Shown here: positions 22,411 through 61,072 of the stretch, piece by piece
How positions within the stretch are numbered: position 1 is the first letter of the stretch
Layout of the letters: each line of letters starts with the position of its first letter
Assembly: GCA_030841185.1 (NCBI GenBank)
Contig: JAVEDB010000181.1
Span: 1-61,072 of the forward strand
Direction: 5' to 3'
Length of the DNA: 61,072 nt
Source of the DNA: Actinomycetota bacterium
GTDB taxonomy: Bacteria; Actinomycetota; Actinomycetes; JACCUZ01
The notes under the pieces: generated by a model
The model's input: only the letters and a program-made list of their open reading frames with translations
Told to the model about the DNA's origin: nothing
The model's database searches: none
Translations under genes and position numbers: made by a program

Positions 22411-22417
22411 TCTCGGA

Positions 22418-24790: not shown

Positions 24791-24793
24791 GCC

Positions 24794-27216: not shown

Positions 27217-27298
27217 TGTGGCGCACCGAGCGGCGCAGAGGGGTCGCTATCATGACGGAGGCAGCCCTCAAGGGTCGACGTGCTCATTTCCCAGGTGA

Positions 27299-28243: not shown

Positions 28244-28261
28244 CCGAAGGAGGGGAACAAC

Positions 28262-28948: not shown

Positions 28949-28989
28949 CACGCAGCGCGTGGTCCCTCAATTCGACGAGTGGGAGGTAG

Positions 28990-29733: not shown

Positions 29734-29752
29734 ACCCAATGAGTCGTAGCCA

Positions 29753-32173: not shown

Positions 32174-32175
32174 GG

Positions 32176-32685: not shown

Positions 32686-32743
32686 GGGTACGCGGTCCTA
32701 TACATGCTCGGAGAAGGGTTTAGTACCCAACGACTGCAGCAGT

Positions 32744-33814: not shown

Positions 33815-33962
33815 GGATCCTCCGTCGAGAAGGCGAGAGCGCGGGCAGCCGCCGTCTCGAAGGGCGGCACGGACCGGCTATTCTAGCGCCGCAACAGAGC
33901 CGGACCGGGCGGGCCAGCAGCCACGGCTGGCTGCCCTGACCTCGACAACAGCGGAGTGATCG

Positions 33963-36079: not shown

Positions 36080-36096
36080 GACGCGGCGAGCCCGCT

Positions 36097-44893: not shown

Positions 44894-44899
44894 CCAGCA

Positions 44900-44940
44900 G
44901 CAACGAGGGGTGGGTGCCGAGCGCACCCACCCCTCGTTGC
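44900..44940 (+). terminator. Intrinsic-terminator-like hairpin (18-bp perfect stem, 5-nt loop)
   Basis: GCAACGAGGGGTGGGTGC (44900-44917) pairs with GCACCCACCCCTCGTTGC (44923-44940) around the loop CGAGC. It starts 7 nt after the TAG stop. There is no U-tract, which is common in high-GC actinobacteria. Confidence 0.65.
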
Positions 44941-44967
44941 GTGCTCAGGTTGTCCCCGACGGAGCCG

Positions 44968-44991
44968 TCTACTACTGTCCCGATAGTAGTG
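44968..44991. promoter_or_regulatory. Palindromic operator box TCTACTACT-N6-ATAGTAGTG (copy 2)
   Basis: Both 9-nt half-sites and the spacing match 18228-18251 exactly. It lies 25 nt upstream of the uppP ATG, between the terminator and the SD (GAGGAG). Confidence 0.6.
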
Positions 44992-45016
44992 CCTACCGAC
45001 TGAGGAGCTCTCTCCC

Positions 45017-45964
45017 ATGGATCCGATCACGTACACGCAGGCTGTGGTGATCGGCATCCTGCAGGGCGTCACCGAGCTGTTCCCCATCTCCAGCCTCGGG
45101 CACGCGGTGCTCGTCCCCGCGTGGATCGGCGGCAGCTGGTCAGACCTGGTCACGCAGTACGGCGTGGAGGACAGCGCAAAGGCGCCGTACCTGGCGTTCA
45201 TCGTCGCCCTGCACGTGGCGACCGCGATCGCCCTCCTGGTGTTCTACTGGCGCGACTGGGTCGCGATCATCGGGGCCTTCTTCCGCACATTGCGCACCCG
45301 CAAGGTCGAGACGTCCACCGAGCGGCTCGCGTGGCTCATCGTCATCGCGACGCTCCCGGTGGGCATCACCGGGCTGGCTCTCGAACACGTGTTCCGGGTG
45401 CTCTTCGCCAAGCCGCTGGCAGCGAGCATCTTCCTCACGATCAACGGGCTCATCCTGCTTGCGGGGGAACGGCTGCGGCGACGCGCGGACGCGCGCGCCG
45501 AGGTCCACGAGAGCGTCGGCGCGGGTTCTCCCGATGCGCAAGACGAGGCGGTCCACCACCCCGGGTACGACGGCGCCAGCCGCCGACTGGAGACGCTGAG
45601 CTACCGGGAGGCGGCCATCATCGGAGTGTTCCAGACCTTTGCGCTGCTCGCCGGGATCTCCCGCTCGGGCATCACGATGGTGGGTGGGCTGGTGCGCGGC
45701 CTCAGCCATGAGGACGCCGCCAAGTTCTCCTTCCTGCTGGCGACCCCGGTGATCTTCGCCGCCGGTGTGCTCAAGATCCCCTCGCTGCTCGGGCCGGCAG
45801 GAGACAAGATCCACGGCCAGGTGGTGGTCGGGGCGATCGTGGCCGGGCTCGCCGCCTACGCCAGCGTTCGGTTCCTCACCCGCTACTTCACGACCCGCAC
45901 CTTGACCCCGTTCGCGATCTACTGCCTCGTCGCCGGTGTCGCCTCGCTCGTAAAGTTCGCGTAA
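45017..45964 (+). CDS. uppP: Undecaprenyl-diphosphate phosphatase (BacA/UppP), with an internal hydrophilic insertion
   Basis: GILQGVTELFPISSLGH and GISRSGITM are the two signature motifs. The ~45-aa charged segment (RRRADARAEVHES...) between the two halves is longer than I expect for this family. Confidence 0.9.
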   Translation: MDPITYTQAVVIGILQGVTELFPISSLGHAVLVPAWIGGSWSDLVTQYGVEDSAKAPYLAFIVALHVATAIALLVFYWRDWVAIIGAFFRTLRTRKVETSTERLAWLIVIATLPVGITGLALEHVFRVLFAKPLAASIFLTINGLILLAGERLRRRADARAEVHESVGAGSPDAQDEAVHHPGYDGASRRLETLSYREAAIIGVFQTFALLAGISRSGITMVGGLVRGLSHEDAAKFSFLLATPVIFAAGVLKIPSLLGPAGDKIHGQVVVGAIVAGLAAYASVRFLTRYFTTRTLTPFAIYCLVAGVASLVKFA

Positions 45965-45989
45965 CAGGACCTGCCTCCAGGAGGAACCC

Positions 45990-46919
45990 ATGGCTCGTGC
46001 TCTGACCATCTCTGCCCGTGGCGAGTCCCCCACCGTCACCGAGACCCCGTCGCCGGAACCGGGCCCCGGCCAGGTGCGTGTTGCTGTGCAGGCCGCGTCG
46101 GTGAACGGCATCGATGCGTACGTCGCAGCTGGGTACGTCTGGGACTCGATGCCGCACCGGTTCCCGGTGGTCCTCGGCCGTGACTTCGCCGGAACCGTCG
46201 AGGCCGTGGGCACCGACGTCACCAGCGTGCGCGTCGGTGACCTGGTGGCCGGAGTCGTCACCGGAATGGACCTCTACCTGGGCGTGATCGCGGAGCACGT
46301 GGTGGTCGACGAGGACGGTGTCGTGGCCGTACCCGACGGTGTGACGGCGGTGCAGGCCGCCGCTCTCGGGCTTGCCGGGGTCTCGGCGCGTGACATGGTC
46401 GACTCGCTCTCCCTGACAACCGACGACGTCGTTCTCGTCTCCGGCGCCACCGGCGGGGTCGGCGCCCTCGCGGTGCAGCTGGCTGCCGCGACCGGTGCGA
46501 CGGTGCTGGCCACGGCCCGGCCCGACGCGACGGAGTTCGTCCGCGGTCTCGGCGCGCACACTGTCGTCGACCACACCGAGGACCTGGCAGCGGCCGTCGC
46601 CGCGGCGGCGCCGGACGGCGTGACCGCCGTGGCGCACGCCGCCGGGGACGCCGCCGCCCTGGCGAAGACCCTGCGGCCAGGGGGACGGCTCGCATCCCTG
46701 CTGGGTGCCACCGCGGAGCAGGTCGGCCGCGACGACATCACCGTCACCCCCGTGGGCGCCCAGTTCACACCCGAGAAGCTACGGGCCTTGCTGGACGCGG
46801 TGGCAGCCGGTCAGCTGCGGGTGCCGGTCGGGCAGACCTTCTCACTAGAAGAGGCGACACAGGCCCTCGGTGCGTTCGGCGAACCGAAGCAGGGCAAGCT
46901 GGTCATCACTCTCGACTGA
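45990..46919 (+). CDS. MDR-family NAD(P)H:quinone-type oxidoreductase
   Basis: GQVRVAVQAASVNGID...VLVSGATGGVGALAVQLA...GKLVITL motifs. Confidence 0.8.
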   Translation: MARALTISARGESPTVTETPSPEPGPGQVRVAVQAASVNGIDAYVAAGYVWDSMPHRFPVVLGRDFAGTVEAVGTDVTSVRVGDLVAGVVTGMDLYLGVIAEHVVVDEDGVVAVPDGVTAVQAAALGLAGVSARDMVDSLSLTTDDVVLVSGATGGVGALAVQLAAATGATVLATARPDATEFVRGLGAHTVVDHTEDLAAAVAAAAPDGVTAVAHAAGDAAALAKTLRPGGRLASLLGATAEQVGRDDITVTPVGAQFTPEKLRALLDAVAAGQLRVPVGQTFSLEEATQALGAFGEPKQGKLVITLD

Positions 46920-46932
46920 CGGCTCGGGAGAG

Positions 46933-47961
46933 CTAGACGACGATGCTCGGTTCGTCCGGCGCGGACAGACTCAGCAGAGCTCCGGCGACGGCGGGTGATG
47001 CGGCGACTCTCGCCTCGAGGGCCCGCAGCCGGACCGCAACATGTGACTCGGTGTCGTCCCCGGTGAGGTCGACGTCACCGATGACCGACACCATGCGCGG
47101 CCCGACGATCTCCAACCTCAGGTAGGTGACCCGGGCCACGTCGGGGTCCGCAAGAAGCGCCCGGAGGGCCGCCGAGCGGACGCGGGGATCGGTCTGCTCG
47201 CCGACCAGGAACCGCCGGTTGCGGTTCAGCAGGATGACTGCCACGACGGCCAGCAGCAGCCCGACGAGGATCGACCCCGCCGCATCGGGGACCGTGGACC
47301 CGGTGAGCTGGTGGCCGGCCAGGCCGGCGGCGGCGATGACCAGTCCGATCAGTGCCGCCGAGTCCTCGGCGAAGACCGCACGAACCGTGGGGTCGGAGGT
47401 CGCCAGGACGTGCTCGAGGAAGTCCCGGTCGAGTGATCGTGCCTCACCCCTGACCTGCCGTGCCGACTGCAGCAGCGAGATGCCTTCGAGGACGAAGGCG
47501 AGGATCAGCACGGCATAGCCCACGCCGAAGCTGCCGGCGGGCTCCGGTTTGAGCAGCTCCTGCACGCCGTGCGTGACGGATACCGCGGCGCCGGCGGTGA
47601 GCAGGCCCATGGCTGCGAACAGGGACCAGACGTAGGCCTCCCGTCCGTGACCGAGCGGGTGCGCCTCGTCCGCAGGCAGGCTCGACCGACGAATGGCGAC
47701 GAGGAGGAAGACCTCGTTCCCGGCGTCGGCCCAGGAATGCGCTGCCTCGGCCAGGATGGACGGGGACCCGGTCACCGCGGCCGCAACGGACTTCGCCGCA
47801 GCCACGAGCGCGTTGGCGACGAGGGCGACGACCACCGTCCTGACCGTCTCGGAGCCGCTGTCCGAGCCGGGCGCCTGGGTGAACAGGTCGAAGGGGCTTC
47901 CGGCGGTCTTGTCGGCGACATCGGGCTTCGGTAGGGGTTCCCCGTGCCGTTCGCCGGTCAT
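46933..47961 (-). CDS. Cation diffusion facilitator (CDF) transporter
   Basis: SILAEAAHSWADAGNE...six TM segments...a C-terminal cytosolic domain. The ATG at 47961 lies 4 nt after the upstream gene stop. The 48063 track start would overlap that gene. Confidence 0.8.
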   Translation of the reverse strand: MTGERHGEPLPKPDVADKTAGSPFDLFTQAPGSDSGSETVRTVVVALVANALVAAAKSVAAAVTGSPSILAEAAHSWADAGNEVFLLVAIRRSSLPADEAHPLGHGREAYVWSLFAAMGLLTAGAAVSVTHGVQELLKPEPAGSFGVGYAVLILAFVLEGISLLQSARQVRGEARSLDRDFLEHVLATSDPTVRAVFAEDSAALIGLVIAAAGLAGHQLTGSTVPDAAGSILVGLLLAVVAVILLNRNRRFLVGEQTDPRVRSAALRALLADPDVARVTYLRLEIVGPRMVSVIGDVDLTGDDTESHVAVRLRALEARVAASPAVAGALLSLSAPDEPSIVV

Positions 47962-47965
47962 GTCG

Positions 47966-48604
47966 TCAGCGGGGGTCGGGCCGGTCGACGTTCCAGTGCC
48001 GCGCGACGGTGGCCAGCCAGCTGCCGTCCTCGCGGGGCTGAAGGGAAAACCGGCTGATGACACGCTGGCTGCCCTGGTGGTCGCCGTACATCAGATCGAT
48101 CATGATCCGCACGCGGTCGGTGATCAGAGTCCGAACATCGTCGAACTCGGGTGCAGCAGGATCGCGCAGCGCTCCCTGCCAGAAGCCGACATCGCCGGCC
48201 GCGATGTAGAGATCACGGGTGAGCCGGTGGAAGCCGTCCAGGGCCGGCCGTTGGACCTGGCCGAGATCGCGTGACATCTCGACGCGCCAACCGTGCAGCA
48301 CCCCGATGCCGTTTCCCACGTTGCGGAGGGACATCGTGAGGTAGATCGCGCCATCCGCAACCTCCGCCGTGCCGGAGCCTCCCGGAGTCAGCACGAAGTG
48401 CTCGTCGGCGAACCCCACCTTGACCGGAGGATCCTCGGGCCGCGACGGCATGATGAGCGGACGGATGTTGGCCAGCAGCGACTGCTCGGCCACCCGAGCA
48501 GCCCGGTTGCCGGAACGCACCGACGCGAAAGTCGCCATCGCAAGAACCAGCGTGCCTCCTGCCGTCGCGAGGGAGGAGATGGTCACCCAGTCGGCCACGC
48601 GCAC
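47966..48604 (-). CDS. Hypothetical membrane-anchored protein
   Basis: One N-terminal TM segment (WVTISSLATAGGTLVLAMATFA) and a ~170-aa domain with no family I recognise. Possible starts are GTG at 48604 or 48598. The longer track ORF is unlikely. Confidence 0.5.
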   Translation of the reverse strand: MRVADWVTISSLATAGGTLVLAMATFASVRSGNRAARVAEQSLLANIRPLIMPSRPEDPPVKVGFADEHFVLTPGGSGTAEVADGAIYLTMSLRNVGNGIGVLHGWRVEMSRDLGQVQRPALDGFHRLTRDLYIAAGDVGFWQGALRDPAAPEFDDVRTLITDRVRIMIDLMYGDHQGSQRVISRFSLQPREDGSWLATVARHWNVDRPDPR

Positions 48605-48655
48605 ACGATACGGCGTACGGCTAGATTTGGGCCAAGTGCTTCCGGAGGTGCGGAC

Positions 48656-48868
48656 GTGGGCTTTATCAAGGGCTTCGGCCAGTTCTGGTACGACTTCATC
48701 ATCGGCGACGACTGGAAGATCGCGGCCGCCGTGGTCAGCGTGCTTCTGGTGGGCGTCGTGTGCGTGAAGAGCGGTCTCGCGGACGCCACCTTCCTGGCTC
48801 CGCTGCTCGCAGTCGGCGTGGGGTTCGCCTTCGTCGTCGCCCTTCTCGTCGACGTCCGCAAGAACTGA
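48656..48868 (+). CDS. Small (70 aa) two-TM membrane protein
   Basis: GTG at 48656, 7 nt after GGAGG (48644-48648). Sequence GFIKGFGQFWYDFIIGDDWKIAAAVV... It is the first gene of the downstream same-strand run. Confidence 0.5.
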   Translation: MGFIKGFGQFWYDFIIGDDWKIAAAVVSVLLVGVVCVKSGLADATFLAPLLAVGVGFAFVVALLVDVRKN

Positions 48869-48875
48869 GGACCTG

Positions 48876-49679
48876 ATGCAGACGAGCCTCTGGGCACTGG
48901 CCGCGTCGACGTTCTTTGCCGCGATCGTCGAGATGGTCGAAGCCCTCACAATCGTGATGGCGATGGGCATGACCCGCAGCTGGCGTTCGACGCTGATCGG
49001 GGTGGCAGCGGCGATCGCCGCGTTGGTGGTCTTCACCGCGGCGGCCGGGTACGCGCTCGCGACCTGGTTGCCACAGGCTGCGCTGCAGCTCACGATCGGG
49101 ACGCTGCTGCTGATCTTCGGGCTTCAGTGGTTGCGCAAGGCGATCCTGCGGTCATCCGGGCGCAAGGCGCTGCACGACGAGGACCTGATCTACGCCGAGG
49201 AAGTCGAGGCGGCGCGCGCGGCCGGCGAGCCGACCAGGGCCGGGCTCGACTGGTTCTCCTTCGTGGTGAGCTTCAAGGGCGTGTTCCTCGAAGGTGTCGA
49301 GGTCGTCTTCATCGTCATCACGTTCGGTCTCACGGCCAACAACGTCCCCGTCGCCGCCGGGGGTGCGGTCGCGGGCGGAGCCCTTGTGCTTATCGTGGGC
49401 ATCTTCTCCCGCGGGCCGCTGTCACGGGTGCCGGAGAACACCCTGAAGTACGGCGTGGGCTTGCTGCTGTCCGCTTTCGGAACCTTCTGGGCCATCGAGG
49501 GCCTTGGCTTCCTGCGCAGCGGCCGGGAGAGCCTGAGCTGGCCGGGCGCAGACCTGTCGATCCTGTTCCTCGTCGTCGGCTGGTTCGTGCTGTCCCGGGT
49601 CATGGTCGCGTACTTCCGGGTGCCCAAGAAGACTCAGTCGCCGCAGACTCCTGACAGTCGCGTGCTGTCACGTGAATGA
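48876..49679 (+). CDS. Polytopic membrane protein with internal duplication (COG4280/UPF0016-like)
   Basis: 267 aa. Acidic-in-TM motifs are repeated (IVEMVEALTIV and FLEGVEVVFIV). Its end overlaps the next gene start by 8 nt. Confidence 0.55.
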   Translation: MQTSLWALAASTFFAAIVEMVEALTIVMAMGMTRSWRSTLIGVAAAIAALVVFTAAAGYALATWLPQAALQLTIGTLLLIFGLQWLRKAILRSSGRKALHDEDLIYAEEVEAARAAGEPTRAGLDWFSFVVSFKGVFLEGVEVVFIVITFGLTANNVPVAAGGAVAGGALVLIVGIFSRGPLSRVPENTLKYGVGLLLSAFGTFWAIEGLGFLRSGRESLSWPGADLSILFLVVGWFVLSRVMVAYFRVPKKTQSPQTPDSRVLSRE

Positions 49680-50646
49680 GCGCGCCTTCTGGCTGCGCGA
49701 GCCAGGTCTGGGCGAGATAAGACCGGTCTCGCTGCCGGAGCCAGGGCCTACAGATGTCCTCGTACGCACCCTGCGAACCGGTGTGAGTCGCGGCACCGAG
49801 ACGCTCGTGTTCCGTGGCGGCGTCCCCGCGAGCCAGTACGCCGCCATGCGCGCACCGTTCCAGGAAGGGGACTTCCCGGGGCCGGTGAAGTACGGCTACC
49901 TCAATGTCGGCGTCGTGGAGCACGGCCCGCCGGAGCTGACCGGTCGCACCGTCTTCTGCCTCTACCCGCATCAGACCGCGTACGTCGTACCTGCGGACGC
50001 CGTGACGGTGGTGCCCGAGCAGGTGCCACCCACGCGTGCAGTGCTTGCCGGAACCGTCGAGACCGCGGTCAACACCCTGTGGGACGCCGCACCGCTGCTC
50101 GGTGACCGCATCGCCGTCGTGGGCGCCGGCATGGTCGGGTGTTGCGTCGCCCGGCTTCTCGCCCGGTTCCCCGCGGCGCGCGTCACCCTCGTCGATGTCG
50201 ACGCCAGCCGGGCCGACGTCGCGGCCGCTCTCGGTGTGGGCTTCGCCACTCCCGACGACGCCGTCGGCGGCTGTGACCTCGTCGTACACACCAGCGCGAC
50301 CTCCGCCGGCCTCCAGTGCTCCCTGGACCTACTCGGCTCCGAGGGTGAGGTCATCGAGCTCAGCTGGTACGGCGACGCCGAGACCCGGCTGTCACTCGGG
50401 GGCTCGTTCCACTCCGGCCGCCTCAGCATCCGGGCCAGTCAGGTCGGCATGGTGTCCCCCGCCCGCCGCGGCCGGCGCAGCCCGGCCGACCGGACGGCGC
50501 TCGCGCTGGAGCTCCTCCGCGACCCCGCCTTCGACGCGCTGCTCAGCGGCTCATCGCGCTTCGACGAGTTGCCCGACGTCATGGCCCGGCTGGCGGACGG
50601 GAACCTGCCGGGGCTGTGCCACACCATCACCTACGACGAAGGGTAG
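49672..50646 (+). CDS. MDR-superfamily dehydrogenase lacking obvious catalytic-zinc ligands (BchC/sorbitol-DH-like)
   Basis: [15 protein letters not shown] stands where GxCxxDxH is expected. The Rossmann motif reads [14 protein letters not shown]. Confidence 0.7.
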
Positions 50647-50650
50647 GTCC

Positions 50651-51049
50651 GTGTTCAGCGTCACGGTCCGCGAACACATGATGATCGCGCACAGCTTCCG
50701 CGGGGAGGTGTTCGGACCCGCGCAGCGACTGCACGGCGCGACGTACGTCGTGGACGCGACGTTCCGGCGCGCAGCCCTCGACGAGGACAACCTCGTGGTC
50801 GACATCGGGCGAGCCACCGATGAACTGCACGCCGTCCTCGCAGAGCTGAGCTACCGCAACCTCGACGACGAGGACGCCTTCACCGGGATGAACACGTCGA
50901 CCGAGGCGCTGGCCCAGGTGGTCGCGGACCGGCTTGCCGACCGCGTACACGCCGGCGCTCTCGGCGACGGGGCCCGCGGGCTCGAGGGGATCGCCGTGAC
51001 CCTGCACGAGTCACACATCGCCTGGGCGAGCTACGAGCGGCCGTTGTGA
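50651..51049 (+). CDS. 6-pyruvoyl-tetrahydropterin synthase/QueD-fold protein with degenerate active site
   Basis: 132 aa. MIAHSF...[13 protein letters not shown] parallels the family pattern AAHRL...C-x3-HGH. Here the Cys and the second His of HGH are both Ala. Confidence 0.6.
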
Positions 51050-52080
51050 CGGTGGTGCACGTCGTGGTGCCCGACGGCGTCGACGACCCGACGCAACCGA
51101 GCGGCGGGAACGCCTACGACCGGCAGGTCTGCCGGGGCCTTGCCTCCACCGGCTGGTCGGTGGTCCAGCATCCGGTGCCCGGCTCCTGGCCCCGGCCCGG
51201 TCCGGCCGCGAGCGAGCAGCTGGCCGGCGTGATCGCAGGAATCCCCGACGGCGCTGTCGTGCTGGTCGACGGCCTGGTCGCCTCGCCGTCCCCGCAGGTG
51301 CTCGTGCCGGAGGCGAAGCGGCTGCGCCTAGTCATCCTGGTGCACATGCCACTTGGTGGGCCGGCCGAGCACGCGGTGCTGTCCGCGGCGGCAGCGGTCG
51401 TCACGACCAGCACGTGGACCCGGCGCCGGTTGCTCGACGACTACGCCCTCTGCCCCAACAGCGTCCACGTCGCCGAACCTGGCGTCGAGTCGGCCGACCT
51501 GGCGGAGAGTACGCCGGCCGGTGGCCGGCTGCTGTGTGTCGCAGCAGTGACGCCGGTCAAGGGACACGATGTACTGGTCGCCGCGCTGGCCACGGTCGCG
51601 GACCTCTCCTGGCGCTGCACGTGTGTGGGCAGCCTGGACCGTGACCCGCGCTTCGCCAAGCGGGTGCGCCGGGAAGCCATGGAGAAAGGCGTCGGTGACC
51701 GGGTGCACTTTCCGGGCGCGCGTACGGGCGCCGACCTGGACGCGTCGTACGCCGGCGCGGACCTGCTCGTCCTCGCGTCGCGCGCCGAGACTTACGGCAT
51801 GGTCGTCACCGAGGCGCTGGCCCGCGGGCTCCCGGTTGTCGCCACCGACGTCGGCGGGTTGCCGGAGGCGCTGGGCCGCGGTGCCGCCGGACATCGGCCA
51901 GGGGTCCTGGTCCCGCCCGACGACCCGGTCGCGTTCGGTGCCACGCTGCGCGACTGGCTGGTCGACGGCGATCTGCGGGCGCGGCTGCGTCTGACTGCGC
52001 GGGAGCGGCGTGCAGCACTGGCGGACTGGCCGGCCTGCACCTCCGCGATCGCGGAGGTGCTGGCGGCGGCCGGCCGATGA
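51046..52080 (+). CDS. Glycosyltransferase family 4
   Basis: The C-terminus [24 protein letters not shown] (E-x7-E) is set in a GT-B layout. GTG overlaps the upstream TGA. Confidence 0.8.
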
Positions 52081-52901
52081 GCCTCGAGTCCGTCCGGGTC
52101 AGCCCGCAGTGGCTGGCGCTTCGGGAGTCGGCCGACGCTGCGGCGCGGTCGAGCGAGCTCGTCGGACAGCTCCCGAGCCTCCTGCCTTCCCGTGGCGGCG
52201 TGGTGATCCACGACCTCGGCTGCGGCACCGCGGGGATGGCTCGCTGGCTCGCCCCGCAACTGCCCGGCCCGCAGCACTGGGTCCTGTACGACCGGGACAC
52301 CGAGCTGCTCGCCGTCGCCGCCGCGTCCCTCCCGCGCGTTGCCGCCGACGGGACCGCGGTCACCGGCGAGACTCGCCGCCACGACGTCACCCGGCTCGGC
52401 GCGGATGAGCTGGCCGGGGCCTCCCTGGTGACCGTCTCGGCGCTGCTGGACATGCTGACGGCGGACGAGGTGGATCGGCTCGTCACGACATGTGCGGGCG
52501 CCGGCTGCCCGGCGCTGATCACCGGCTCGGTCATCGGCCGTGTCGAGCTGCGCCCGGACGACTCTCTCGACAACCTCGTCATGGATGCCTTCAACGACCA
52601 CCAGCGCCGCGCGACCGGCGGCCCACGACTGCTCGGACCGGACGCGGTGGACGCTGCGGTGGCCGCGTTCACCCGGCTCGGGTCTGACGTGGTCGTCCGG
52701 CCCAGCCCGTGGCGCCTCGGCGCTGCCGACGCCGCGCTGACGGCGGAGTGGTTCACCGGCTGGGTAACCGCAGCGGTCGAGCAGCGGCCGGAGCTGGCGG
52801 GCGCGCTGGCGGGCTACGGGCAACGGCGCCTGGCCGACGCGGCTGCCGGCCGGCTGAAGGTCGTGGTGCAGCACCAGGATCTGCTGATCCTCCCGCGGTG
52901 A
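52077..52901 (+). CDS. Class I SAM-dependent methyltransferase
   Basis: VIHDLGCGTAGMARWL (motif I) and LVTVSALLDML. ATG overlaps the GT4 stop (ATGA). Confidence 0.75.
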   Translation: MSLESVRVSPQWLALRESADAAARSSELVGQLPSLLPSRGGVVIHDLGCGTAGMARWLAPQLPGPQHWVLYDRDTELLAVAAASLPRVAADGTAVTGETRRHDVTRLGADELAGASLVTVSALLDMLTADEVDRLVTTCAGAGCPALITGSVIGRVELRPDDSLDNLVMDAFNDHQRRATGGPRLLGPDAVDAAVAAFTRLGSDVVVRPSPWRLGAADAALTAEWFTGWVTAAVEQRPELAGALAGYGQRRLADAAAGRLKVVVQHQDLLILPR

Positions 52902-54001
52902 TCTCCGGGGAGCCAGTGAACCCGACGCGCGGGAGATACGTGTCCCCTGGGGAGCGGCTCGGCGCGGGTGAGGGCGGGCGCGACGCTCGCGCAGGCACCG
53001 ACGAGGAATCGAGCGCCAGGTTGAGCCGCACATCGTGGGCGCGGCTGCTGGGGTCGGCCGGAGTCCTCTCCGTGCTTGTCTGGCGGTTGGGCACCGGTCC
53101 CTTCCTCGACGGCGTGCGCACCGTCGGCTGGCGGTCGCTGGCGGCAGCGTCCGTCATCGCGGCGGTGACCACGGTGTGCTGCGCCTGGCGCTGGCAGACC
53201 GTCGTACGCGGTCTGGGTGTCGACCTGCCGTTCGGCGCTGCGGTCTCCGCCTACTACCGGTCGTTGTTCCTCAACGCGGTGCTGCCCGGCGGCGTGGTGG
53301 GCGACGTGCATCGTGGAGTGCGGCACGGCCACGACGTCGGGGACCTCGGCCGCGGGCTGCGAGCCGTCGCCTGGGAACGCACCGCGGGCCAGGTCGTGCA
53401 GGTCGTGCTGACGATGGTGGTCCTGCTCACGTTCCCGTCACCGGTGCGCGCGTCGATGCCGGTGGTCGCAGCTGTCGTCGTGGTGCTCGCACTCTGCATC
53501 CCCCCGCTGGTGCGGCTTCTGCCCGAAGGTGAGGAGTTGCTCCTGGCCAGGGCCTGGCGCGCGGCTCGCTCCGATGTCCGCGACGGTCTGCTCGTACGCC
53601 GGGCATGGCCGCGCGTCGTGCTCGCCTCGCTTGTCGCCGGCGCTGGCTATGCAGGCACCTTCCTGATCGCTGCACGGACGGCCGGCGTCACGGCCTCGTT
53701 CGCCCGCCTGGTGCCGTTGGCGCTGCTCGTGCTGCTGGGGGCGACGCTGCCGAGCCTCGCCGGCTGGGGTCCACGGGAGGGTATGGCGGCCTGGGCGTTC
53801 GCAGCGGCCGGGCTGGGCGAGGCCCAAGGAGTGGCCACCGCCGTGGTCTACGGCGTGCTGGCGGTCGTCTCGAGCCTGCCCGGAGCCGTCGTGCTGGTCG
53901 TGGGCTGGCTGCGCCAGCGGACGCGACGAGGCCAGCCGGCGGCTCGGAGGGAGTTGCGTGTGTCGGTGGCTGCCGGGCGGGAAGGGTGTGGCGGTGACTG
54001 A
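52898..54001 (+). CDS. Lysylphosphatidylglycerol-synthase-TM-like ('flippase-like') membrane protein (second copy in window)
   Basis: WRWQTVVRGLG...YYRSLFLNAVLPGGVVGDVHR is typical of the family. GTG at 52898 overlaps the MTase stop (GTGA), and GTG at 52916 is the alternative start. Confidence 0.7.
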   Translation: MISGEPVNPTRGRYVSPGERLGAGEGGRDARAGTDEESSARLSRTSWARLLGSAGVLSVLVWRLGTGPFLDGVRTVGWRSLAAASVIAAVTTVCCAWRWQTVVRGLGVDLPFGAAVSAYYRSLFLNAVLPGGVVGDVHRGVRHGHDVGDLGRGLRAVAWERTAGQVVQVVLTMVVLLTFPSPVRASMPVVAAVVVVLALCIPPLVRLLPEGEELLLARAWRAARSDVRDGLLVRRAWPRVVLASLVAGAGYAGTFLIAARTAGVTASFARLVPLALLVLLGATLPSLAGWGPREGMAAWAFAAAGLGEAQGVATAVVYGVLAVVSSLPGAVVLVVGWLRQRTRRGQPAARRELRVSVAAGREGCGGD

Positions 54002-54686
54002 GCGGCCGTACACCCTCCTGAGCTGCGGCATGTCGATCGACGGGTACCTCGACAACGCGACGGAGGAACGGCTGGCGCTGTCCAACGAGGCCGACTTCGA
54101 GCGGGTGGACGCCGTACGCGCGGACTGTGACGCGATCATGGTGGGCGCCGCGACCGTCCGGAAGGACAACCCGCGGCTGCTGGTGCGCTCGGCCGCGCTT
54201 CGGGACCACCGGGTCGCCCGCGGGCTGGGCCCGTCTCCCACGAGGGTGACGGTGACCGGAAGCGCCCGGCTCGACGCGGGTGCGAACTTCTTCACTCTCG
54301 GTGACACCGAGAAGCTGGTCTACTGCTCGACCGCGACGGTGGCCGAGGCTCGCTCCCGGCTGGGGGCGGTGGCCACCGTGATCGACGGCGGCCGGCCGGT
54401 GGACATGCGCTGGGTCAGCGAGGATCTCGGGGCGCGCGGAGTGCGGCGACTGATGGTCGAGGGCGGCAGCACGGTGCACACGCAGTTCCTGACCGCAGAC
54501 CTCGCCGACGAGCTGCAGCTGGTCGTCGCGCCGTTCTTCGTGGGGGACTCGCGGGCCCGCCGGTTCGTCAGCGACGGCCGGTTCCCCTGGAACCCCGACC
54601 GGCGCGCCACTCTCGCGGCGGTGCACCAGATCGGTGACGTGGTCCTGCTCCGCTATGCCCTGTCGACACGGTTCAACACGGACTGA
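53994..54686 (+). CDS. Stand-alone RibD C-terminal-domain (DHFR-fold) reductase
   Basis: YTLLSCGMSIDGYLD...IMVGAATVRKDNPRL...RLMVEGGSTVHTQFL. No cytidine-deaminase-type domain is attached. The start overlaps the upstream gene end by 8 nt. Confidence 0.8.
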   Translation: MTERPYTLLSCGMSIDGYLDNATEERLALSNEADFERVDAVRADCDAIMVGAATVRKDNPRLLVRSAALRDHRVARGLGPSPTRVTVTGSARLDAGANFFTLGDTEKLVYCSTATVAEARSRLGAVATVIDGGRPVDMRWVSEDLGARGVRRLMVEGGSTVHTQFLTADLADELQLVVAPFFVGDSRARRFVSDGRFPWNPDRRATLAAVHQIGDVVLLRYALSTRFNTD

Positions 54687-54699
54687 CAGAGGAGAACCC

Positions 54700-55359
54700 A
54701 TGCCGCGAAACGTTCCCACCGCGACCATCCGCACCCAGGTGACGGTGCCGTTGCGCTTTGCCGATGGTTACGCCACGGACGCCCGGGTCTTCAGCTTCGA
54801 GGGACTCGTCGACGGCCGGGAGAACCTGGCGTTCGGCCTCGGCGACTGGGCGGGGACGTTCACCCCGGACGACCAGCGGGGCGCAGTGCCGCTCGTCCGG
54901 CCACACAGCGAGTGCCTCACCGGCGACGTCTTCGGCAGCCAGCGCTGTGACTGCGGTCCGCAACTGCGCGAGGCCGTGGAGCGGATCGCTGACTCCGGCG
55001 GGTTCCTGCTGTACCTGCGGCAGGAGGGGCGTGGCATCGGCCTCTACGCCAAGCTCGACGCCTACGCGCTGCAGGACGACGGCCTCGACACGTACCAGGC
55101 CAACCTCGCGCTCGGCCACGCCGAGGACGAGCGCAACTACCTCGTCGCGGCGCAGATGCTGCACGCCCTGGGTCTGTCGCGGGTGGCCCTGCTGAGCAAC
55201 AACCCGGACAAGGCCAAGCAGCTAGACCGGCTGGGGGTGACCGTCACTGAACGGGTGCCGACGGGTGTGTACCTATCCGCGGTCAACGCGAGGTACCTGG
55301 CTGCCAAGGTCCGGCACGGCGCGCACACCCTCGACCTGCCGATCGCCGGTCTGCCATGA
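54700..55359 (+). CDS. GTP cyclohydrolase II (stand-alone, RibA-type)
   Basis: VRPHSECLTGDVFGSQRCDCG (Zn site), YLRQEGRGIGL, AYALQD and LLSNNPDK. SD GAGGAG lies 5 nt upstream of the ATG. Confidence 0.9.
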   Translation: MPRNVPTATIRTQVTVPLRFADGYATDARVFSFEGLVDGRENLAFGLGDWAGTFTPDDQRGAVPLVRPHSECLTGDVFGSQRCDCGPQLREAVERIADSGGFLLYLRQEGRGIGLYAKLDAYALQDDGLDTYQANLALGHAEDERNYLVAAQMLHALGLSRVALLSNNPDKAKQLDRLGVTVTERVPTGVYLSAVNARYLAAKVRHGAHTLDLPIAGLP

Positions 55360-55386
55360 ATGGGGTTGCGTGGTTTCATCTCTGCC

Positions 55387-57714
55387 TCAGCCGAACGCGC
55401 TGAGGAAGCGATCGCGGAAGGAGCTCATCGGCCAGACCGGTGCGTGCGGGTCGGGATGCAGGCCGTCCTGCCAGCCCCACGAGGAGATCCGGTCCATGAC
55501 CCGCTTGTCGCGCGCGATGATCGTGATCGGCACGTCGTGGCTGGCGTTCTCACCGGTCACGACCGTCGCGGGTTGGTGGTCGCCGACGAGGATGAGCACG
55601 AGGTTGTCCGCGGCGTACCGCTGCATGAACGAGATCAGGGTGCTCATCGTGTACGCGATCGACTGTCCGTAGGCCGCCCGGACCGCGGGCGGATTGGTGT
55701 ACAGGGCGTACTGCGACACCTTCAGGGTGGCCATGGGGGCGAAGATCGAACCGTCGCCGAGCTGTGTCCAGTCGATCATGTTCGGGATGCGCGTCCACGG
55801 CGCGTGCGACGAGACCAGGTCGATCTCTGCCATGACGGGCGGGTGGCGGGGGGCCAGCTCGAGGCGGTTGAAGGCTGACATGACGTACTGGTCGGGCATG
55901 GCGGCGTAGGAGAACGTCGGACCGTGGTACCCGACGTTGCGCCGGTCATAGAGCTTGTCGTAGTGGTAGAAGGACGTTCCCTCTGGCCAGGTCCGGTTGT
56001 CCGACGGCATGTCGGCTACCGTCCGCCAGCCCGCACGCCGGAAGGCCTCGCTGAGGGTCAATCGGTCCGTGTTGACGAGCTGGCTGTAGCGGCGCTGGGT
56101 GTCGACCCGAAGCCCGGACTGAAGGGTGGCGTGCGCGAGCCAGCTGAGGCCGCCGAACGTCGGGGAGGTCAGAAATGCGCTGCGGGAGGCGAAGCCGGCG
56201 GCTCGCAGTTGCTTGGTCCCCGCGTCGAGGGTCGCAGCCACCGGTGGCGAGACCGCCGGGCCCTGGACGGCCACCCGCCCGTAGCTCTCGACGAAGGCCA
56301 GGATGACGTCCTTGCCGCGTAGACCGGTCAGCAGCCGGTCGCCGCTGGTGCCGTCGAAGCGGTCGCGAGCGATCTCGGAAGCGAACGTCGCGCGGTCCGG
56401 CAATCCGGTTCGGACTGCCTGCTGCTGCTCGTAGACGAGCCTGGAGGCACTCGTGGAGGCGATGGGCAAACCGGGCTCGATCTGCGCGCCGAGCACCGCA
56501 CAGAGCACCCACGCGACGCCCAGCGCCGTGACGGTGCGCAGCGAGGACGTGCGATGGCGCGCCGCGAGCCGGGCGAGGCGGAGCACCGACAGCGTCGTCA
56601 GGGCGAGTACCGCGACGCCGAGCAGGGCCACGCCGATGAGTGCGAGGGTCGCGGTCGCCCCACCGACCGACAGCCGCAACGTCTCGACTCCGATCCCGGC
56701 GTAGTCCAGGTCAACCACCGGATTGAACGGGCGGTCGAAGGTCGCGAAGAAGCCGACGTCGAGGACCTTCACCAGGAGCAGCAGACCGAGAGCCGGCCCG
56801 ACGATCCAGGCCATGAAGCGTTGCGCCGTGGCGGACAGGACAGCGGCCAGGGCGACGAGGACACCCTCGATCGGGATCCGAACGAATGCGCCGGGGGTGA
56901 GGCTGCTCAGCTGGTTCGGCCCGACAAGGGCGACCCACACCAGAAGGCCGGCCAGGACCGTGGTCGTCGCGGCCGTCACACTGCGAAGCCGTCGCCGCCC
57001 AGGCGACGTCACCAGGCCGAGCGCGTCGTGCCTCCGGCGCCACAGCCACCACACGCTGCGACCGAACGACTCCATGAGAAGCGCGAGGGACGCGACGAGC
57101 GCGACCTGCATCCAGCTGCGCGGGACGACGTCCGCCGCGGCGACCGTCAAGGTGATGCCCTGGATCGCCGCGACGACCTTGCCCCAGTAGCGCGCCGGCA
57201 GCGGGCGGCGCAGCCAGGGCAACAGCCGACCGGCCACGACGAACGCATAGCGGGCCGCTCCGATCGTCAGCACCCACCAGGCGCCCGACGAGGCGACGTA
57301 ACCGCTGAGGACGAGGATCAGGAAGGAGTCGACCTCCGCGTCGAAACGCGCCCCGAGGGGCGACGTGGTGGCCGTCCGCCGCGCCACCCAGCCGTCGATC
57401 GCGTCCAGGACCAACGCGACAGCGGCGAGGCCGACGAGGACCGGCACCGAGGCGGCCCCCCGGAAGGTGTCCGCGACGAGGGCCGCCACCGCTCCGACGA
57501 GGGTCGCCCGGGCGATCGTTACCCGGTTGGCCGGTCCGAACCCGCGGGCGCGCGAACGCACCAACCCGCGGGCGATTCCTGCGTTCGCGACCACGCCACA
57601 GGCGAGGCCGACCGCCCAGCCGGCGGCACCCAGGCCCACGGTCACGGCGAGTACGGCGAGAAGCGCCAGCTGGGCGAGCAGGCCGACAGCGGCGCCGCGT
57701 TGAACAGATGCCAA
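55387..57714 (-). CDS. Fusion: CDP-alcohol phosphatidyltransferase (N) plus polytopic linker plus sulfatase/LtaS-like phosphotransferase domain (C)
   Basis: DAIDGWVARRTATTSPLGARFDAEVD matches D-x2-DG-x2-AR...G-x3-D-x3-D. The C-terminal half (ILAFVESYG...LTSPTFGGLSW...VGDHQP) resembles the alkaline-phosphatase superfamily. TTG start with GGAGG-N4. Confidence 0.7.
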   Translation of the reverse strand: MASVQRGAAVGLLAQLALLAVLAVTVGLGAAGWAVGLACGVVANAGIARGLVRSRARGFGPANRVTIARATLVGAVAALVADTFRGAASVPVLVGLAAVALVLDAIDGWVARRTATTSPLGARFDAEVDSFLILVLSGYVASSGAWWVLTIGAARYAFVVAGRLLPWLRRPLPARYWGKVVAAIQGITLTVAAADVVPRSWMQVALVASLALLMESFGRSVWWLWRRRHDALGLVTSPGRRRLRSVTAATTTVLAGLLVWVALVGPNQLSSLTPGAFVRIPIEGVLVALAAVLSATAQRFMAWIVGPALGLLLLVKVLDVGFFATFDRPFNPVVDLDYAGIGVETLRLSVGGATATLALIGVALLGVAVLALTTLSVLRLARLAARHRTSSLRTVTALGVAWVLCAVLGAQIEPGLPIASTSASRLVYEQQQAVRTGLPDRATFASEIARDRFDGTSGDRLLTGLRGKDVILAFVESYGRVAVQGPAVSPPVAATLDAGTKQLRAAGFASRSAFLTSPTFGGLSWLAHATLQSGLRVDTQRRYSQLVNTDRLTLSEAFRRAGWRTVADMPSDNRTWPEGTSFYHYDKLYDRRNVGYHGPTFSYAAMPDQYVMSAFNRLELAPRHPPVMAEIDLVSSHAPWTRIPNMIDWTQLGDGSIFAPMATLKVSQYALYTNPPAVRAAYGQSIAYTMSTLISFMQRYAADNLVLILVGDHQPATVVTGENASHDVPITIIARDKRVMDRISSWGWQDGLHPDPHAPVWPMSSFRDRFLSAFG

Positions 57715-57786
57715 CGAGCCTCCGTGTCTCCGGTTAGAGCAGGGGTTCTACAGCCGTGAACACGACACGTGCGGGAGTTTCGTTCA

Positions 57787-58569
57787 ATGAAGCAGTATGA
57801 GCGGCCCGCCTTTGTCGAGGCTCTCCAGTCGGCCCGCCTCTCGGCGTACGCCGCCGGGGAGTTCGTCGGCCAGGAGAGCTTTATGCGCGCGAGTGAGATC
57901 CTGGCGCTCGCCGTACAGGCGGGTGTCGGGCCGGAGACGTCCGTGCTGGACCTGTGTTGCGGCGTGGCCGGGCCGGGGCGGTTCATCACGGAGGCGCTGG
58001 GTTGTACGTATCTGGGCGTGGATTCCAGCCCCAGCGCCATCGGCATCGCGCGCGACCGTGCCGGCGACCTTGCCTGTCGCTTCGCGGTCTCGCAGGTCCC
58101 TCCGGTCCCACCCGGCCCGTTCGATGTCGTCCTGATGCTGGAGACCATGCTCGCCTTCCCCGACAAGGCGACATTGTTCCGCGAGATAGCAACGGCGCTA
58201 CCGACGGGCGGCCGCTTCGCGTTCACGCTTGAGGAGGGTCCGCCGTTGACCGCGGCGGAACGTGCGCGCATGCCCGACGCCGACACGGTGTGGCTCGTTC
58301 CGCTGCCGGAGATCTTCGCCAGCCTGGAGCGAGCAGGGATGCGGCTGCTCTGGCACGACGAGTGCAGTCAGTCCCACCTGGCCGTGGTCGATTCGCTGCT
58401 GGGAGCGTTGGCAGCCGATGCGACCGACATCACCGCTCGCCTCGGACCCCGCGCCCTCGACGAGCTGTTGAGAGCTCACCGACTCTGGAGCGACTGGCTG
58501 CGGAGCGGCCGGGTTCGCAAGTTCGCGGTGGTGGCGGAGAAGACCGGATCCCTCGCGACCAACTCGTGA
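57787..58569 (+). CDS. Class I SAM-dependent methyltransferase
   Basis: VLDLCCGVAGPGRF (motif I) and FDVVLMLETM. I chose the ATG at 57787, and GTG at 57769 is the alternative start. Confidence 0.75.
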   Translation: MKQYERPAFVEALQSARLSAYAAGEFVGQESFMRASEILALAVQAGVGPETSVLDLCCGVAGPGRFITEALGCTYLGVDSSPSAIGIARDRAGDLACRFAVSQVPPVPPGPFDVVLMLETMLAFPDKATLFREIATALPTGGRFAFTLEEGPPLTAAERARMPDADTVWLVPLPEIFASLERAGMRLLWHDECSQSHLAVVDSLLGALAADATDITARLGPRALDELLRAHRLWSDWLRSGRVRKFAVVAEKTGSLATNS

Positions 58570-58578
58570 CAGATCGGC

Positions 58579-60600: not shown

Positions 60601-60623
60601 CCCCCTGAGCAAGGAGCGTTGTC

Positions 60624-61072
60624 GTGACCCGACATGTCCCCCGTCGTCGTGTGCTGCTCGCCCTCGTCGCGGTCGGCGCGACCGTGTCCGGCCTCGTTGC
60701 GCCGGCCGCCGTCTCGGCACTGTCCGCCGCGCCCGCGGCGGCCGCCGACCACGTGCTGCCCTACCAGGACCCTCGCCAGCCGATCGCGACGCGGGTCAGT
60801 GACTTGCTCAGCCGGATGTCGACGGCCGAGAAGATCGGCCAGATGACCCAGACCGAGCGGTACCAGGTGTTCGACGACCCGTCGCCGATCACGACGTACG
60901 GGCTCGGCTCGATCCTGTCCGGTGGCGGCTCGACCCCGGCCACCAACGCACCGGCCGCCTGGGCCGACATGATCGACCGCTTCCAGGCCGCCGCGCTCAA
61001 GACCCGGCTGGGCATCCCGCTGCTCTACGGGATCGACTCGGTGCACGGCGACGGCAATCTGTACGGCGCCAC
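60624..61072 (+). CDS. GH3-family beta-glucosidase (3' end beyond window)
   Basis: This ORF is absent from the track because it has no stop inside the window. GTG at 60624 lies 7 nt after AAGGAG. A signal peptide is followed by MSTAEKIGQMTQ...GLGSILSGGGS...IPLLYGIDSVHG. Confidence 0.8.
   Translation, partial: MTRHVPRRRVLLALVAVGATVSGLVAPAAVSALSAAPAAAADHVLPYQDPRQPIATRVSDLLSRMSTAEKIGQMTQTERYQVFDDPSPITTYGLGSILSGGGSTPATNAPAAWADMIDRFQAAALKTRLGIPLLYGIDSVHGDGNLYGA

Follow-up and report, generated by a model that had tools for sequence, protein, structure and literature searches.

An actinobacterial gene cluster around PTPS-IV joins GTP cyclohydrolase II and a stand-alone RibD_C reductase to a CDP-alcohol phosphatidyltransferase fusion

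Introduction

What is made by a gene cluster in which GTP cyclohydrolase II (GCH II) and a stand-alone RibD_C reductase are encoded together with a degenerate PTPS-fold protein, a dehydrogenase, a glycosyltransferase, methyltransferases, and membrane proteins? This question is raised by contig JAVEDB010000181.1 of an Actinomycetota bacterium (GenBank assembly GCA_030841185.1), whose full 61,072 nucleotides, with ~70% G+C across their length, are called the window here. Nine head-to-tail open reading frames (ORFs) on the plus strand at 48656 to 55359, labeled g0 to g8, were read in a preliminary description as one operon of novel composition, and two further genes, g9 and MT2, lie beyond them (Table 1). 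We found that the cluster is almost certainly of the SCO6650 type, orthologous to SCO6649 to SCO6655 of Streptomyces coelicolor together with the adjacent CDP-alcohol transferase gene, and not a riboflavin operon. SCO6650 and SCO6655 were studied in 2006 to 2008.

Results

A conserved gene set surrounds PTPS-IV

The proteins of the window were searched against 80 related loci, and co-conservation was counted in the 66 loci that have enough flanking sequence. The dehydrogenase was present in 65 of these 66 loci (63 to 85% identity), always encoded directly upstream of the PTPS-like protein, a member of the PTPS-IV subfamily (see below). The GT4 glycosyltransferase was found in 64 loci, the flippase-like LPG_synthase_TM protein in 63, the methyltransferase MT1 in 58 (50 to 68% identity), the CDP-alcohol phosphatidyltransferase (CDP-OH) domain of g9 also in 58, and GCH II in 53. 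A RibD_C orthologue was encoded in 33 loci, and the sulfatase-like part of g9 with its five transmembrane helices (5-TM) in 29. The order dehydrogenase, PTPS-IV, GT4, methyltransferase, LPG_synthase_TM was preserved in nearly all 80 loci, an arrangement far beyond chance. Gene-neighborhood conservation thus bears out the preliminary view that the genes form one unit.

The CDP-OH gene is mostly divergent and located ~1.1 to 1.3 kb upstream of the dehydrogenase gene; otherwise it is found 5 to 8 kb downstream. In three close relatives of the window (L081 to L083), the genes form two convergent operons, one encoding the dehydrogenase, PTPS-IV, GT4, and methyltransferase, and the other GCH II, RibD_C, LPG_synthase_TM, an acyltransferase, and a g9 homologue. 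The handling of the product at the membrane, as proposed in the preliminary description, is strengthened by the frequency of the CDP-OH transferase and by its sharing of one operon with LPG_synthase_TM, RibD_C, and GCH II in these relatives.

The claimed bounds of a nine-gene operon, however, did not hold: counterparts of g0 and g1 were found in none of the 80 loci, and g9 and MT2 belong to the unit instead. MT2 matches Pfam families Methyltransf_25, _11, _23, _12, and _31, has 61 to 75% identical copies in 19 related loci, and adjoins the g9 homologue in L081 to L083. Judged by the absence of g0 and g1 from all related loci and by the recurrence of the CDP-OH domain and MT2, the real unit consists of g2 to g8, g9, and MT2. 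All-against-all clustering of the ORFs revealed no further gene family in more than 14 of 81 loci, a ceiling that applies outside the one component formed when single linkage joined the genes of the cluster with their antisense shadows. The CDP-OH and LtaS-like parts of g9 are encoded in one ORF in 16 of the 83 scanned loci besides the window. Other apparent fusions (GT4 with methyltransferase, dehydrogenase with PTPS-IV, methyltransferase with LPG_synthase_TM, and GT4 with LPG_synthase_TM) were seen once or twice each and may be assembly artefacts.

Relatives of the PTPS-IV protein occur in at least 594 species-level genomes. The named sources are Streptomyces, Micromonospora, Amycolatopsis, Actinomadura, Sciscionella, Nocardioidaceae, Solirubrobacterales, Gaiellales, Thermoleophilia, and one metagenome-assembled genome labeled Candidatus Binataceae. 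The locus of the latter (L066, 1996 to 4600) encodes the dehydrogenase, PTPS-IV, GT4, and a fused CDP-OH/LtaS-like protein; the presence of the cluster in a bin assigned outside Actinomycetota could reflect transfer or mis-binning. A second contig of Streptomyces tendae (L062) carries at 10001 to 10396 a second, 78% identical PTPS-IV copy with no other cluster gene within 10 kb, and the complete cluster of the same strain is found at L042. This copy may be an orphan paralogue.

The PTPS-IV protein

The protein encoded by g3 matches the Pfam PTPS family with 79.7 bits and aligns over residues 1 to 132 with PDB entry 3D7J, “Uncharacterized protein SCO6650” of S. coelicolor (E 2.7e-64, 76% identity). 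It carries the signature FGPAQ at residue 21 and none of the PTPS-I, -II, and -III motifs (CxxxHGH, CxxxxxHGH, and ExxHGH). FGPAQ is the signature that defines the PTPS-IV subfamily of COG0720, and 561 PTPS-IV sequences were linked to PF00925 (GCH II) and PF01872 (RibD_C) neighbors in a genome-neighborhood study (PMC5445326). Both neighbors are present in the gene string of g3 itself and recur in the related loci. By its signature and its match to 3D7J, g3 is a PTPS-IV member and the orthologue of SCO6650. Its best 120 database matches are 71 to 92% identical, most of them 84 to 92%.

Alignments with true PTPS enzymes (2G64 and 3I2B) revealed that the HGH motif is changed to HGA, Asp-His to Ser-Tyr, and Cys to Ala. 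The protein is thus devoid of the third Zn-ligand His, the catalytic Cys, and the catalytic Asp-His, while the ST.E pterin anchor is kept, and it scores below the cut-offs of the QueD and 6PTHBS models. A catalytically competent PTPS or QueD was rejected on these grounds. The preliminary description had correctly recognized a degenerate PTPS, which can now be placed in a named family.

GCH II, the RibD_C reductase, and two forms of the cluster

The GCH II of the window scores 182 bits against Pfam GTP_cyclohydro2 and 246 bits against NF001591 (cut-off 148). It contains the Zn-binding Cys triad C-x10-C-x-C and the AYALQ motif, and Tyr122 occupies the switch position of Tyr105 in Escherichia coli RibA. 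By motifs, switch residue, and model score, it is a canonical GTP cyclohydrolase II (RibA). In an alignment with E. coli RibA, the GCH II proteins linked to the cluster were read at the Tyr105 position. The Tyr class comprises 26 aligned sequences, including those of the window and E. coli RibA, and its cluster-linked members are mostly 73 to 84% identical to the window protein. The Met class was found in 30 loci (Streptomyces, Amycolatopsis, Actinacidiphila) with 45 to 56% identity to the window GCH II. Leu occupies the position in two loci, and His in one.

These classes differ in their partners. The RibD_C orthologue (62 to 80% identical) accompanies the Tyr-type GCH II in 22 of 24 loci and the Met-type enzyme in none of 30; about half of the Met-type loci encode instead, on the opposite strand, a ~30% identical RibD_C-like protein, and the LtaS-like module mostly accompanies the Tyr/RibD_C form. 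On these sequence comparisons, the cluster exists in two forms, type A with Tyr-GCH II and Ser-RibD_C (see below) and type B with Met-GCH II. The window belongs to type A, unlike the studied S. coelicolor cluster, whose SCO6655 is of the Met type. In a Streptomyces type B locus (L080), the Met-type GCH II gene ends inside an ornithine cyclodeaminase/mu-crystallin family gene (15477 to 16490, plus strand); ORFs of a related family were seen in about 10 loci, of which nine are from Streptomyces.

In work by Spoonamore et al. from 2006, Met120 of SCO6655 reportedly keeps the reaction from going beyond the formylated product FAPy, and SCO6655 is said to have been assayed in vitro in two Spoonamore papers. 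As the window enzyme has Tyr122 where SCO6655 has Met120, we rejected a FAPy-forming GCH II of the SCO6655 type for this locus; the diamino product would be expected instead. A 2026 review ascribes to the third RibA copy of S. coelicolor “a completely new function unrelated to flavin biosynthesis.” In S. coelicolor expression data, SCO6655 and a gene numbered SCO6652 are raised in late/stationary phase, which fits several readings of the cluster.

The stand-alone reductase scores 134 bits against both RibD_C and TIGR01508, the latter with a cut-off of 186 bits. Its best PDB matches are archaeal 2,5-diamino-6-ribosylamino-pyrimidinone 5'-phosphate (DAROPP) reductases (5XUX, E 2e-31; 6P8C; 2AZN), and bacterial RibD proteins rank far below them. 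The AROPP-specificity residue is Lys in bacteria (K152 of EcRibD, K151 of BsRibG), Thr in fungi, and Asn in archaea (PMC3631187). Ser10 of the window reductase is found at this site, and all 38 orthologues have Ser, while the distant homologues of the Streptomyces type have Gln. Despite the score below the TIGR01508 cut-off, the protein likely belongs to the archaeal/fungal reductase family, and it is predicted to act on DAROPP. The pairing of a Ser-type, archaeal-like reductase with a canonical GCH II supports the earlier proposal of a non-deaminated product that is reduced to the ribityl form.

No deaminase, RibB (DHBP synthase), RibH, or RibE was detected with Pfam and NCBIfam among the ten proteins encoded at 48656 to 57714, and no FMN riboswitch (RFN) or other Rfam match was present at E < 0.1 in 44000 to 61072. 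A riboflavin operon was rejected because these domains, the RibD deaminase included, and the riboswitch are missing and because the reductase has Ser instead of the bacterial Lys. This agrees with the preliminary description, as does the exclusion of a standard pterin or queuosine route, given that a GCH I gene is missing and the PTPS has lost its catalytic residues.

Dehydrogenase, glycosyltransferase, and methyltransferase

The dehydrogenase contains the Rossmann motif GAGMVG, has no GHE motif, and is weakly similar to BchC, Tdh, and polyol dehydrogenases. The GT4 glycosyltransferase matches Glycos_transf_1 with 100 bits, and its E-x7-E motif is intact. Its nearest solved relatives are the sucrose-phosphate synthase (SPS) Tll1590, MshA, and PimA, whose acceptors are fructose-6-phosphate, inositol phosphate, and phosphatidylinositol. 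MT1 matches Methyltransf_25 weakly (24.7 bits), and its translation contains the motif DLGCGTAG. All domain assignments made from the sequence in the preliminary description were borne out by Pfam and NCBIfam.

A membrane module with a predicted extracytoplasmic domain

Residues 47 to 328 of the 367-residue g6 protein match PF03706 with 102 bits, and the protein also matches the flippase-like domain TIGR00374 (27.8 bits). An assignment as MprF was rejected: PF03706 stands alone, without the C-terminal aminoacyl-PG synthase domain, and the protein resembles the flippase half only.

The N-terminal part of g9 (residues ~60 to 210) is, by motif and Pfam score, a CDP-alcohol phosphatidyltransferase. 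It matches PF01066 with 53 bits (cut-off 22) and contains at residue 104 a perfect D(x)2DG(x)2AR(x)8G(x)3D(x)3D motif, DAIDGWVARRTATTSPLGARFDAEVD. Its best NCBIfam matches are archaetidylinositol-phosphate synthase and PgsA. Five hydrophobic helices follow at 246 to 410; by a crude positive-inside estimate, the last 365 residues would be extracellular.

Sequence and profile searches of the PDB with the C-terminal domain of g9 were empty, and the domain of the window itself has no Pfam match. Most of its homologues are stand-alone proteins of ~530 to 600 residues; 18 of 32 match PF00884 (best E 9e-7), and six of 32 have weak matches to phosphoglycerol transferase I (E 0.04). Two homologues carry the NCBI name “sulfatase.” An AlphaFold2 (AF2) model built from a 121-sequence alignment reached a pLDDT of 83.8; a model from 32 sequences (pLDDT 40) was discarded. 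The best Foldseek matches of the retained model are LtaP, LtaS, a Vibrio alkaline-phosphatase-superfamily protein, EptC, GacH, and BcsG (top PDB entries 4UOP, 2W5Q, 4UOO, 6A82, 6DGM, and 6PCZ; E 1e-10 to 1e-7, TM-score ~0.5), and sulfatases rank below these LtaS-type enzymes. All 121 homologues share E57, T100, D293, and H294 of the domain, and S98 is nearly invariant; these residues may correspond to the metal-binding Glu and Asp-His and the Thr/Ser nucleophile of LtaS-type enzymes. Residues ~420 to 775 of g9 are thus predicted to form an extracytoplasmic alkaline-phosphatase-superfamily domain similar to those of LtaS, EptC, and GacH.

About a dozen type A loci encode a membrane acyltransferase (Acyl_transf_3) between LPG_synthase_TM and the g9 homologue. 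These are L081 to L083 and ~9 others, including L006, L011, L015, L018, L034, L035, and L048; the window has no such gene.

Layout of the locus

The features of the cluster are listed in Table 1. The coordinates and the start/stop overlaps that the preliminary description had given proved exact for all nine plus-strand ORFs. Genes g1 and g2 overlap by 8 nt (49672/49679), and a 4-nt gap separates the stop of g2 at 50646 from the GTG of g3 at 50651. A GTGA is common to g3 and g4 (51046/51049), an ATGA to g4 and g5 (52077/52080), and a GTGA to g5 and g6 (52898/52901), and g6 and g7 overlap by 8 nt (53994/54001). The GCH II gene begins at 54700, 13 nt past the stop of g7, and is preceded by GAGGAG. 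The start of g6 at 52898 is insecure: homology starts near residue 45, the first ~45 residues are unconserved in homologues, and in-frame GTG and TTG codons lie downstream. A scan for promoters and terminators found none and is uninformative at 70% G+C.

Table 1. Features of the PTPS-IV cluster in the window
Feature	Coordinates	Strand	Description
g0	48656..48868	+	70-aa ORF with two hydrophobic segments (hydropathy); ORF and sequence only
g1	48876..49679	+	267-aa polytopic membrane protein, weakly GDT1/OFeT-like
g2	49672..50646	+	324-aa zinc-less MDR-type NAD(P) dehydrogenase; core member
g3	50651..51049	+	132-aa PTPS-IV T-fold protein, SCO6650 orthologue
g4	51046..52080	+	GT4 retaining glycosyltransferase; core member
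g5	52077..52901	+	SAM-dependent methyltransferase MT1
g6	52898..54001	+	Flippase-like LPG_synthase_TM membrane protein; start codon uncertain
g7	53994..54686	+	Stand-alone RibD_C reductase, archaeal/fungal type (predicted)
g8	54700..55359	+	Canonical-type GTP cyclohydrolase II (GCH II)
g9	55387..57714	-	775-aa CDP-alcohol phosphatidyltransferase fusion, convergent on the 3' end; core member
MT2	57769..58569	+	Second SAM methyltransferase, divergent from g9; conserved accessory of the window-type cluster

The two ORFs at the 5' end appear to be foreign to the conserved system. g0, which has neither a Pfam or NCBIfam match nor a counterpart in the 80 loci, is an ORF without further support and probably not part of it. 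g1 scores just below the GDT1 cut-off (26 versus 27 bits) and 23 bits against OFeT_1, and the dehydrogenase gene of L081 to L083 is preceded by different genes. Judged by this distribution, g1 is a lineage-specific local passenger despite its 8-nt overlap with g2.

On paper, a long minus-strand ORF (47966 to 49093) overlaps g0 and the start of g1. It has no family match, and its conserved-looking part starts at a hydrophobic segment near residue 163, so the gene within it probably ends near 48610, without an overlap. Just upstream of the cluster are found an undecaprenyl-diphosphatase gene (BacA/UppP; 45017 to 45964, plus strand) and a cation-diffusion-facilitator gene (46933 to 48063, minus strand). 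The latter has no counterpart in the related loci, and UppP has one weak match (28% identity, L067). Farther away, a region of lower G+C content at 22397 to 37191 (0.63 to 0.69 versus ~0.70 to 0.74) encodes a nonulosonic-acid-type surface glycan set, including a PseB-like dehydratase, a DegT aminotransferase, NeuB, a cytidylyltransferase/aldo-keto reductase fusion, a GT2, a methyltransferase, and an SDR.

Discussion

A candidate pathway

From the gene content, catalytic motifs, co-conservation, fusions, fold, and specificity residues described above, we infer the substrates and products, the order of steps, and the final location in the following model, as the preliminary description had inferred reduction, glycosylation, and methylation. 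In this model, a GTP-derived ribityl-diaminopyrimidine phosphate would be remodeled, glycosylated, methylated, attached to a lipid, flipped, and passed to an extracellular acceptor. As a whole, we regard it as a tentative working model whose chances fall somewhat short of even.

The Tyr-type GCH II would open GTP to yield 2,5-diamino-6-ribosylamino-4(3H)-pyrimidinone 5'-phosphate, which the Ser-type RibD_C protein would reduce with NADPH, without deamination, to the ribitylamino form, a polyol phosphate bearing a 2-amino-4-oxopyrimidine. The zinc-less MDR dehydrogenase and the zinc-less PTPS-IV, in which the pterin/guanine-anchoring Glu is kept, might then remodel the ribityl compound. The course that we prefer, although we consider this sub-step doubtful, would oxidize C2' in the ribityl chain and then close a ring through the 5-amino group to give a 7,8-dihydroneopterin-phosphate-like pterin. 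GCH I forms an Amadori intermediate and closes the ring as the last step in a single active site, and a PTPS fold with an intact pterin anchor would suit an Amadori-type ring closure.

Subsequently, the MshA/SPS-like GT4 could add a sugar, and one or two SAM methyltransferases could methylate the compound. With CDP-diacylglycerol, the CDP-OH domain would turn the phosphorylated polyol into the head group of a phospholipid, much like PgsA, whose substrate is glycerol-3-phosphate, and PIP synthase, whose substrate is inositol phosphate. The relatives of the GT4 and the family matches of the CDP-OH domain use phosphorylated polyols, which may therefore be the natural currency of both enzymes, and a ribityl 5'-phosphate compound would qualify. 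The LPG_synthase_TM protein would then move the lipid to the outer leaflet, where the LtaS-like domain would pass the phospho-head group to an extracytoplasmic acceptor or polymerize it. Encoded together and partly fused, an enzyme that synthesizes a lipid, a protein resembling flippases, and a transferase that handles head groups outside the cell would make up a coherent “make, flip, transfer” logic.

Several points weigh against this pathway. All chemistry past the first two steps is argued by analogy, the TM-scores to LtaS-type enzymes are only ~0.5 for a domain that lacks a Pfam match in the window, and the 13 loci with RibD_C and no nearby GCH II make this link look looser than the core. 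The Streptomyces-type clusters have neither the LtaS-like domain nor the Ser-type reductase, and their GCH II reportedly makes FAPy instead of the diamino compound; thus, types A and B may end in different products. The usual acceptors of CDP-alcohol transferases are primary or inositol hydroxyls, and we know of no precedent for a bulky pyrimidine or pterin polyol in this role. A route to pterin that reduces and then reoxidizes is chemically roundabout. Finally, an unpublished link of PTPS-IV to F420 has been claimed (PMC5041015).

Alternative explanations

The product might instead be soluble, either a glycoside of a pterin or diaminopyrimidine, akin to the pteridine glycosides of cyanobacteria, or a compound resembling a cofactor, with the membrane genes serving export or a separate, co-located lipid function. 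GT4-type pteridine glycosyltransferases occur in cyanobacteria, the nearest solved relatives of the window GT4 act on soluble sugar or polyol phosphates, PTPS-IV retains its pterin-anchoring residues, and the Streptomyces form has no LtaS-like domain. We nevertheless consider a soluble product unlikely, since the CDP-OH gene (58 of 66 loci, mostly within ~1.3 kb of the dehydrogenase gene) is as constant as the methyltransferase gene and more so than that of GCH II. The membrane genes share an operon with those of RibD_C and GCH II in L081 to L083, and in the window the LPG_synthase_TM gene lies between those of the methyltransferase and RibD_C with overlapping stop and start codons, provided that the g6 start at 52898 is right. 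Another possibility is precursor supply for F420 or flavin, namely an archaeal-style route to 5-amino-6-ribitylaminouracil for F420/FO or a decorated derivative, in which PTPS-IV could serve, for example, as the missing deaminase. F420 production is common in Actinomycetota, to which the named isolates among the loci belong, and the archaeal type of the reductase would fit, as would the unpublished remark on PTPS-IV in PMC5041015, of which no publication was found in the literature searched. The ceiling of 14 in 81 neighborhoods for any other gene family includes F420 genes, and no F420-biosynthesis domain was found among those neighbors that were scanned with Pfam. PTPS-IV lacks the metal site expected of a hydrolytic deaminase, and this route would leave the GT4, methyltransferases, CDP-OH transferase, flippase-like protein, and LtaS-like domain unexplained; F420 has moreover been made heterologously from FbiC/A/B/D-type genes alone. 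We therefore judge this explanation rather improbable.

It seems very improbable that GCH II and RibD_C are spare riboflavin genes beside an unrelated glycolipid or envelope cluster. The window GCH II does look fully canonical, and the 13 loci with RibD_C alone would suit such a view. However, both GCH II classes, Tyr and Met, keep their association with the cluster in different orders and classes, all 38 orthologues of the reductase have Ser at the site where bacterial riboflavin reductases have Lys, the deaminase, RibB, RibH, RibE, and FMN riboswitch are missing, and the 2026 review regards the activity of SCO6655 as unrelated to flavin biosynthesis. A specialized-metabolite cluster, for example, for a toxoflavin-like GTP-derived antibiotic or pigment, is barely credible to us. 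The late/stationary-phase rise of SCO6655 and the gene numbered SCO6652 would be in keeping with it. GCH II and methyltransferases also occur together in toxoflavin-type clusters. The spread over at least 594 species of Actinomycetes, Thermoleophilia, and Gaiellales and the high identity of PTPS-IV (75 to 92%) point rather to a conserved physiological role, and no ToxC/ToxD-like, nonribosomal peptide synthetase (NRPS), polyketide synthase (PKS), or resistance genes recur in the neighborhoods.

Comparison with known systems

The closest system is SCO6649 to SCO6655 of S. coelicolor, which encodes the orthologous dehydrogenase, PTPS-IV, GT4, methyltransferase, and LPG_synthase_TM in the same order. 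The Streptomyces loci also have the CDP-OH transferase, there divergently upstream. In the window, this enzyme is fused to the 5-TM LtaS-like domain and a second methyltransferase is present; its Ser-type RibD_C stands against none, or the Gln-type protein on the other strand, in Streptomyces.

In the archaeal and fungal steps toward riboflavin and F420, reduction precedes deamination (ArfC/MjaRED, Rib7), likewise by a stand-alone reductase with no deaminase domain, and the archaeal DAROPP reductases share with their window relative a non-Lys residue at the specificity site. The window protein differs from them in its Ser, as opposed to archaeal Asn or fungal Thr, and in its TIGR01508 score. 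Its locus has no subsequent deaminase, lumazine synthase, or riboflavin synthase, and its gene is embedded among glycosyltransferase and lipid genes.

The logic of lipoteichoic acid (PgsA, flipping, and LtaS, LtaP, GacH, EptC, or BcsG) is mirrored in the window by a CDP-OH transferase, a flippase-like protein, and a 5-TM LtaS-fold domain, and the named structural neighbors of this domain, of the LtaS type, all take a phospho-alcohol off a phospholipid and hand it to an acceptor outside the cell membrane. In the window, however, transferase and LtaS-like domain form one polypeptide, the domain has no detectable sequence similarity to LtaS, and the head group would be GTP-derived rather than glycerol or ethanolamine phosphate. 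A similar logic of polyol-phosphate decoration and lipidation underlies mycothiol and phosphatidylinositol-phosphate chemistry (MshA, PIP synthase): the GT4 is related to MshA, and the best family matches of the CDP-OH domain use phosphorylated polyols, as in actinobacterial PIP chemistry. The scores remain well below the equivalog cut-offs (73 versus 462 bits for MshA, 24 versus 109 bits for PgsA), and the side chain of a ribityl-aminopyrimidine or pterin would stand in for inositol as the polyol.

With the T-fold chemistry of GCH I, PTPS, and QueD, the cluster shares the PTPS fold and the Glu/Thr pterin anchor. It differs by having no GCH I gene and a PTPS-IV without the third Zn-ligand His, Cys, and Asp-His, and its substrate would be a GCH II-derived monophosphate.

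Novelty and significance

The claim of novelty made in the preliminary description stands in part. No characterized pathway of such composition was found in the literature searched, nor any paper that assigns a product to the cluster or lists its full gene set. However, the cluster had already been noticed through PTPS-IV and the structure 3D7J, and the association of the PTPS-IV, GCH II, and RibD_C genes is published (PMC5445326). What is new is the corrected gene set with the CDP-OH/LtaS-like gene and MT2, the dichotomy between Tyr/Ser and Met forms of the cluster, and the LtaS-type fold and outside location predicted for the fused domain of g9. The chemistry behind the cluster, too, has a real chance of being new.

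It is tempting to go further and assume that an envelope phospholipid of an undescribed class is widespread in Actinomycetota (Actinomycetes, Thermoleophilia, Gaiellales). Its head group would be made from GTP via GCH II and consist of a pterin or ribityl-diaminopyrimidine that is glycosylated and methylated. In type A organisms, this would serve as a teichoic-acid-like decoration transferred from the lipid, and the pterin, if formed, would arise by a “split GCH I” route of GCH II, archaeal-type reductase, zinc-less MDR dehydrogenase, and PTPS-IV. This extended proposal is possible, if on balance unlikely to hold.

The analysis defines a conserved gene set around PTPS-IV, a named paralogue family without a published function, and connects the soluble, GTP-derived chemistry with the CDP-alcohol transferase, the flippase-like protein, and the LtaS-like module of the membrane part. 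The cluster occurs naturally in two variants that can be compared, the first pairing Tyr-GCH II with the Ser-reductase and the second having Met-GCH II. If the candidate pathway is right, a very common lineage of soil bacteria would carry an unrecognized nucleotide-derived lipid or wall component, with a bearing on envelope biology, chemotaxonomy, and possibly antibiotic targets, and the first riboflavin intermediate would have a new fate.

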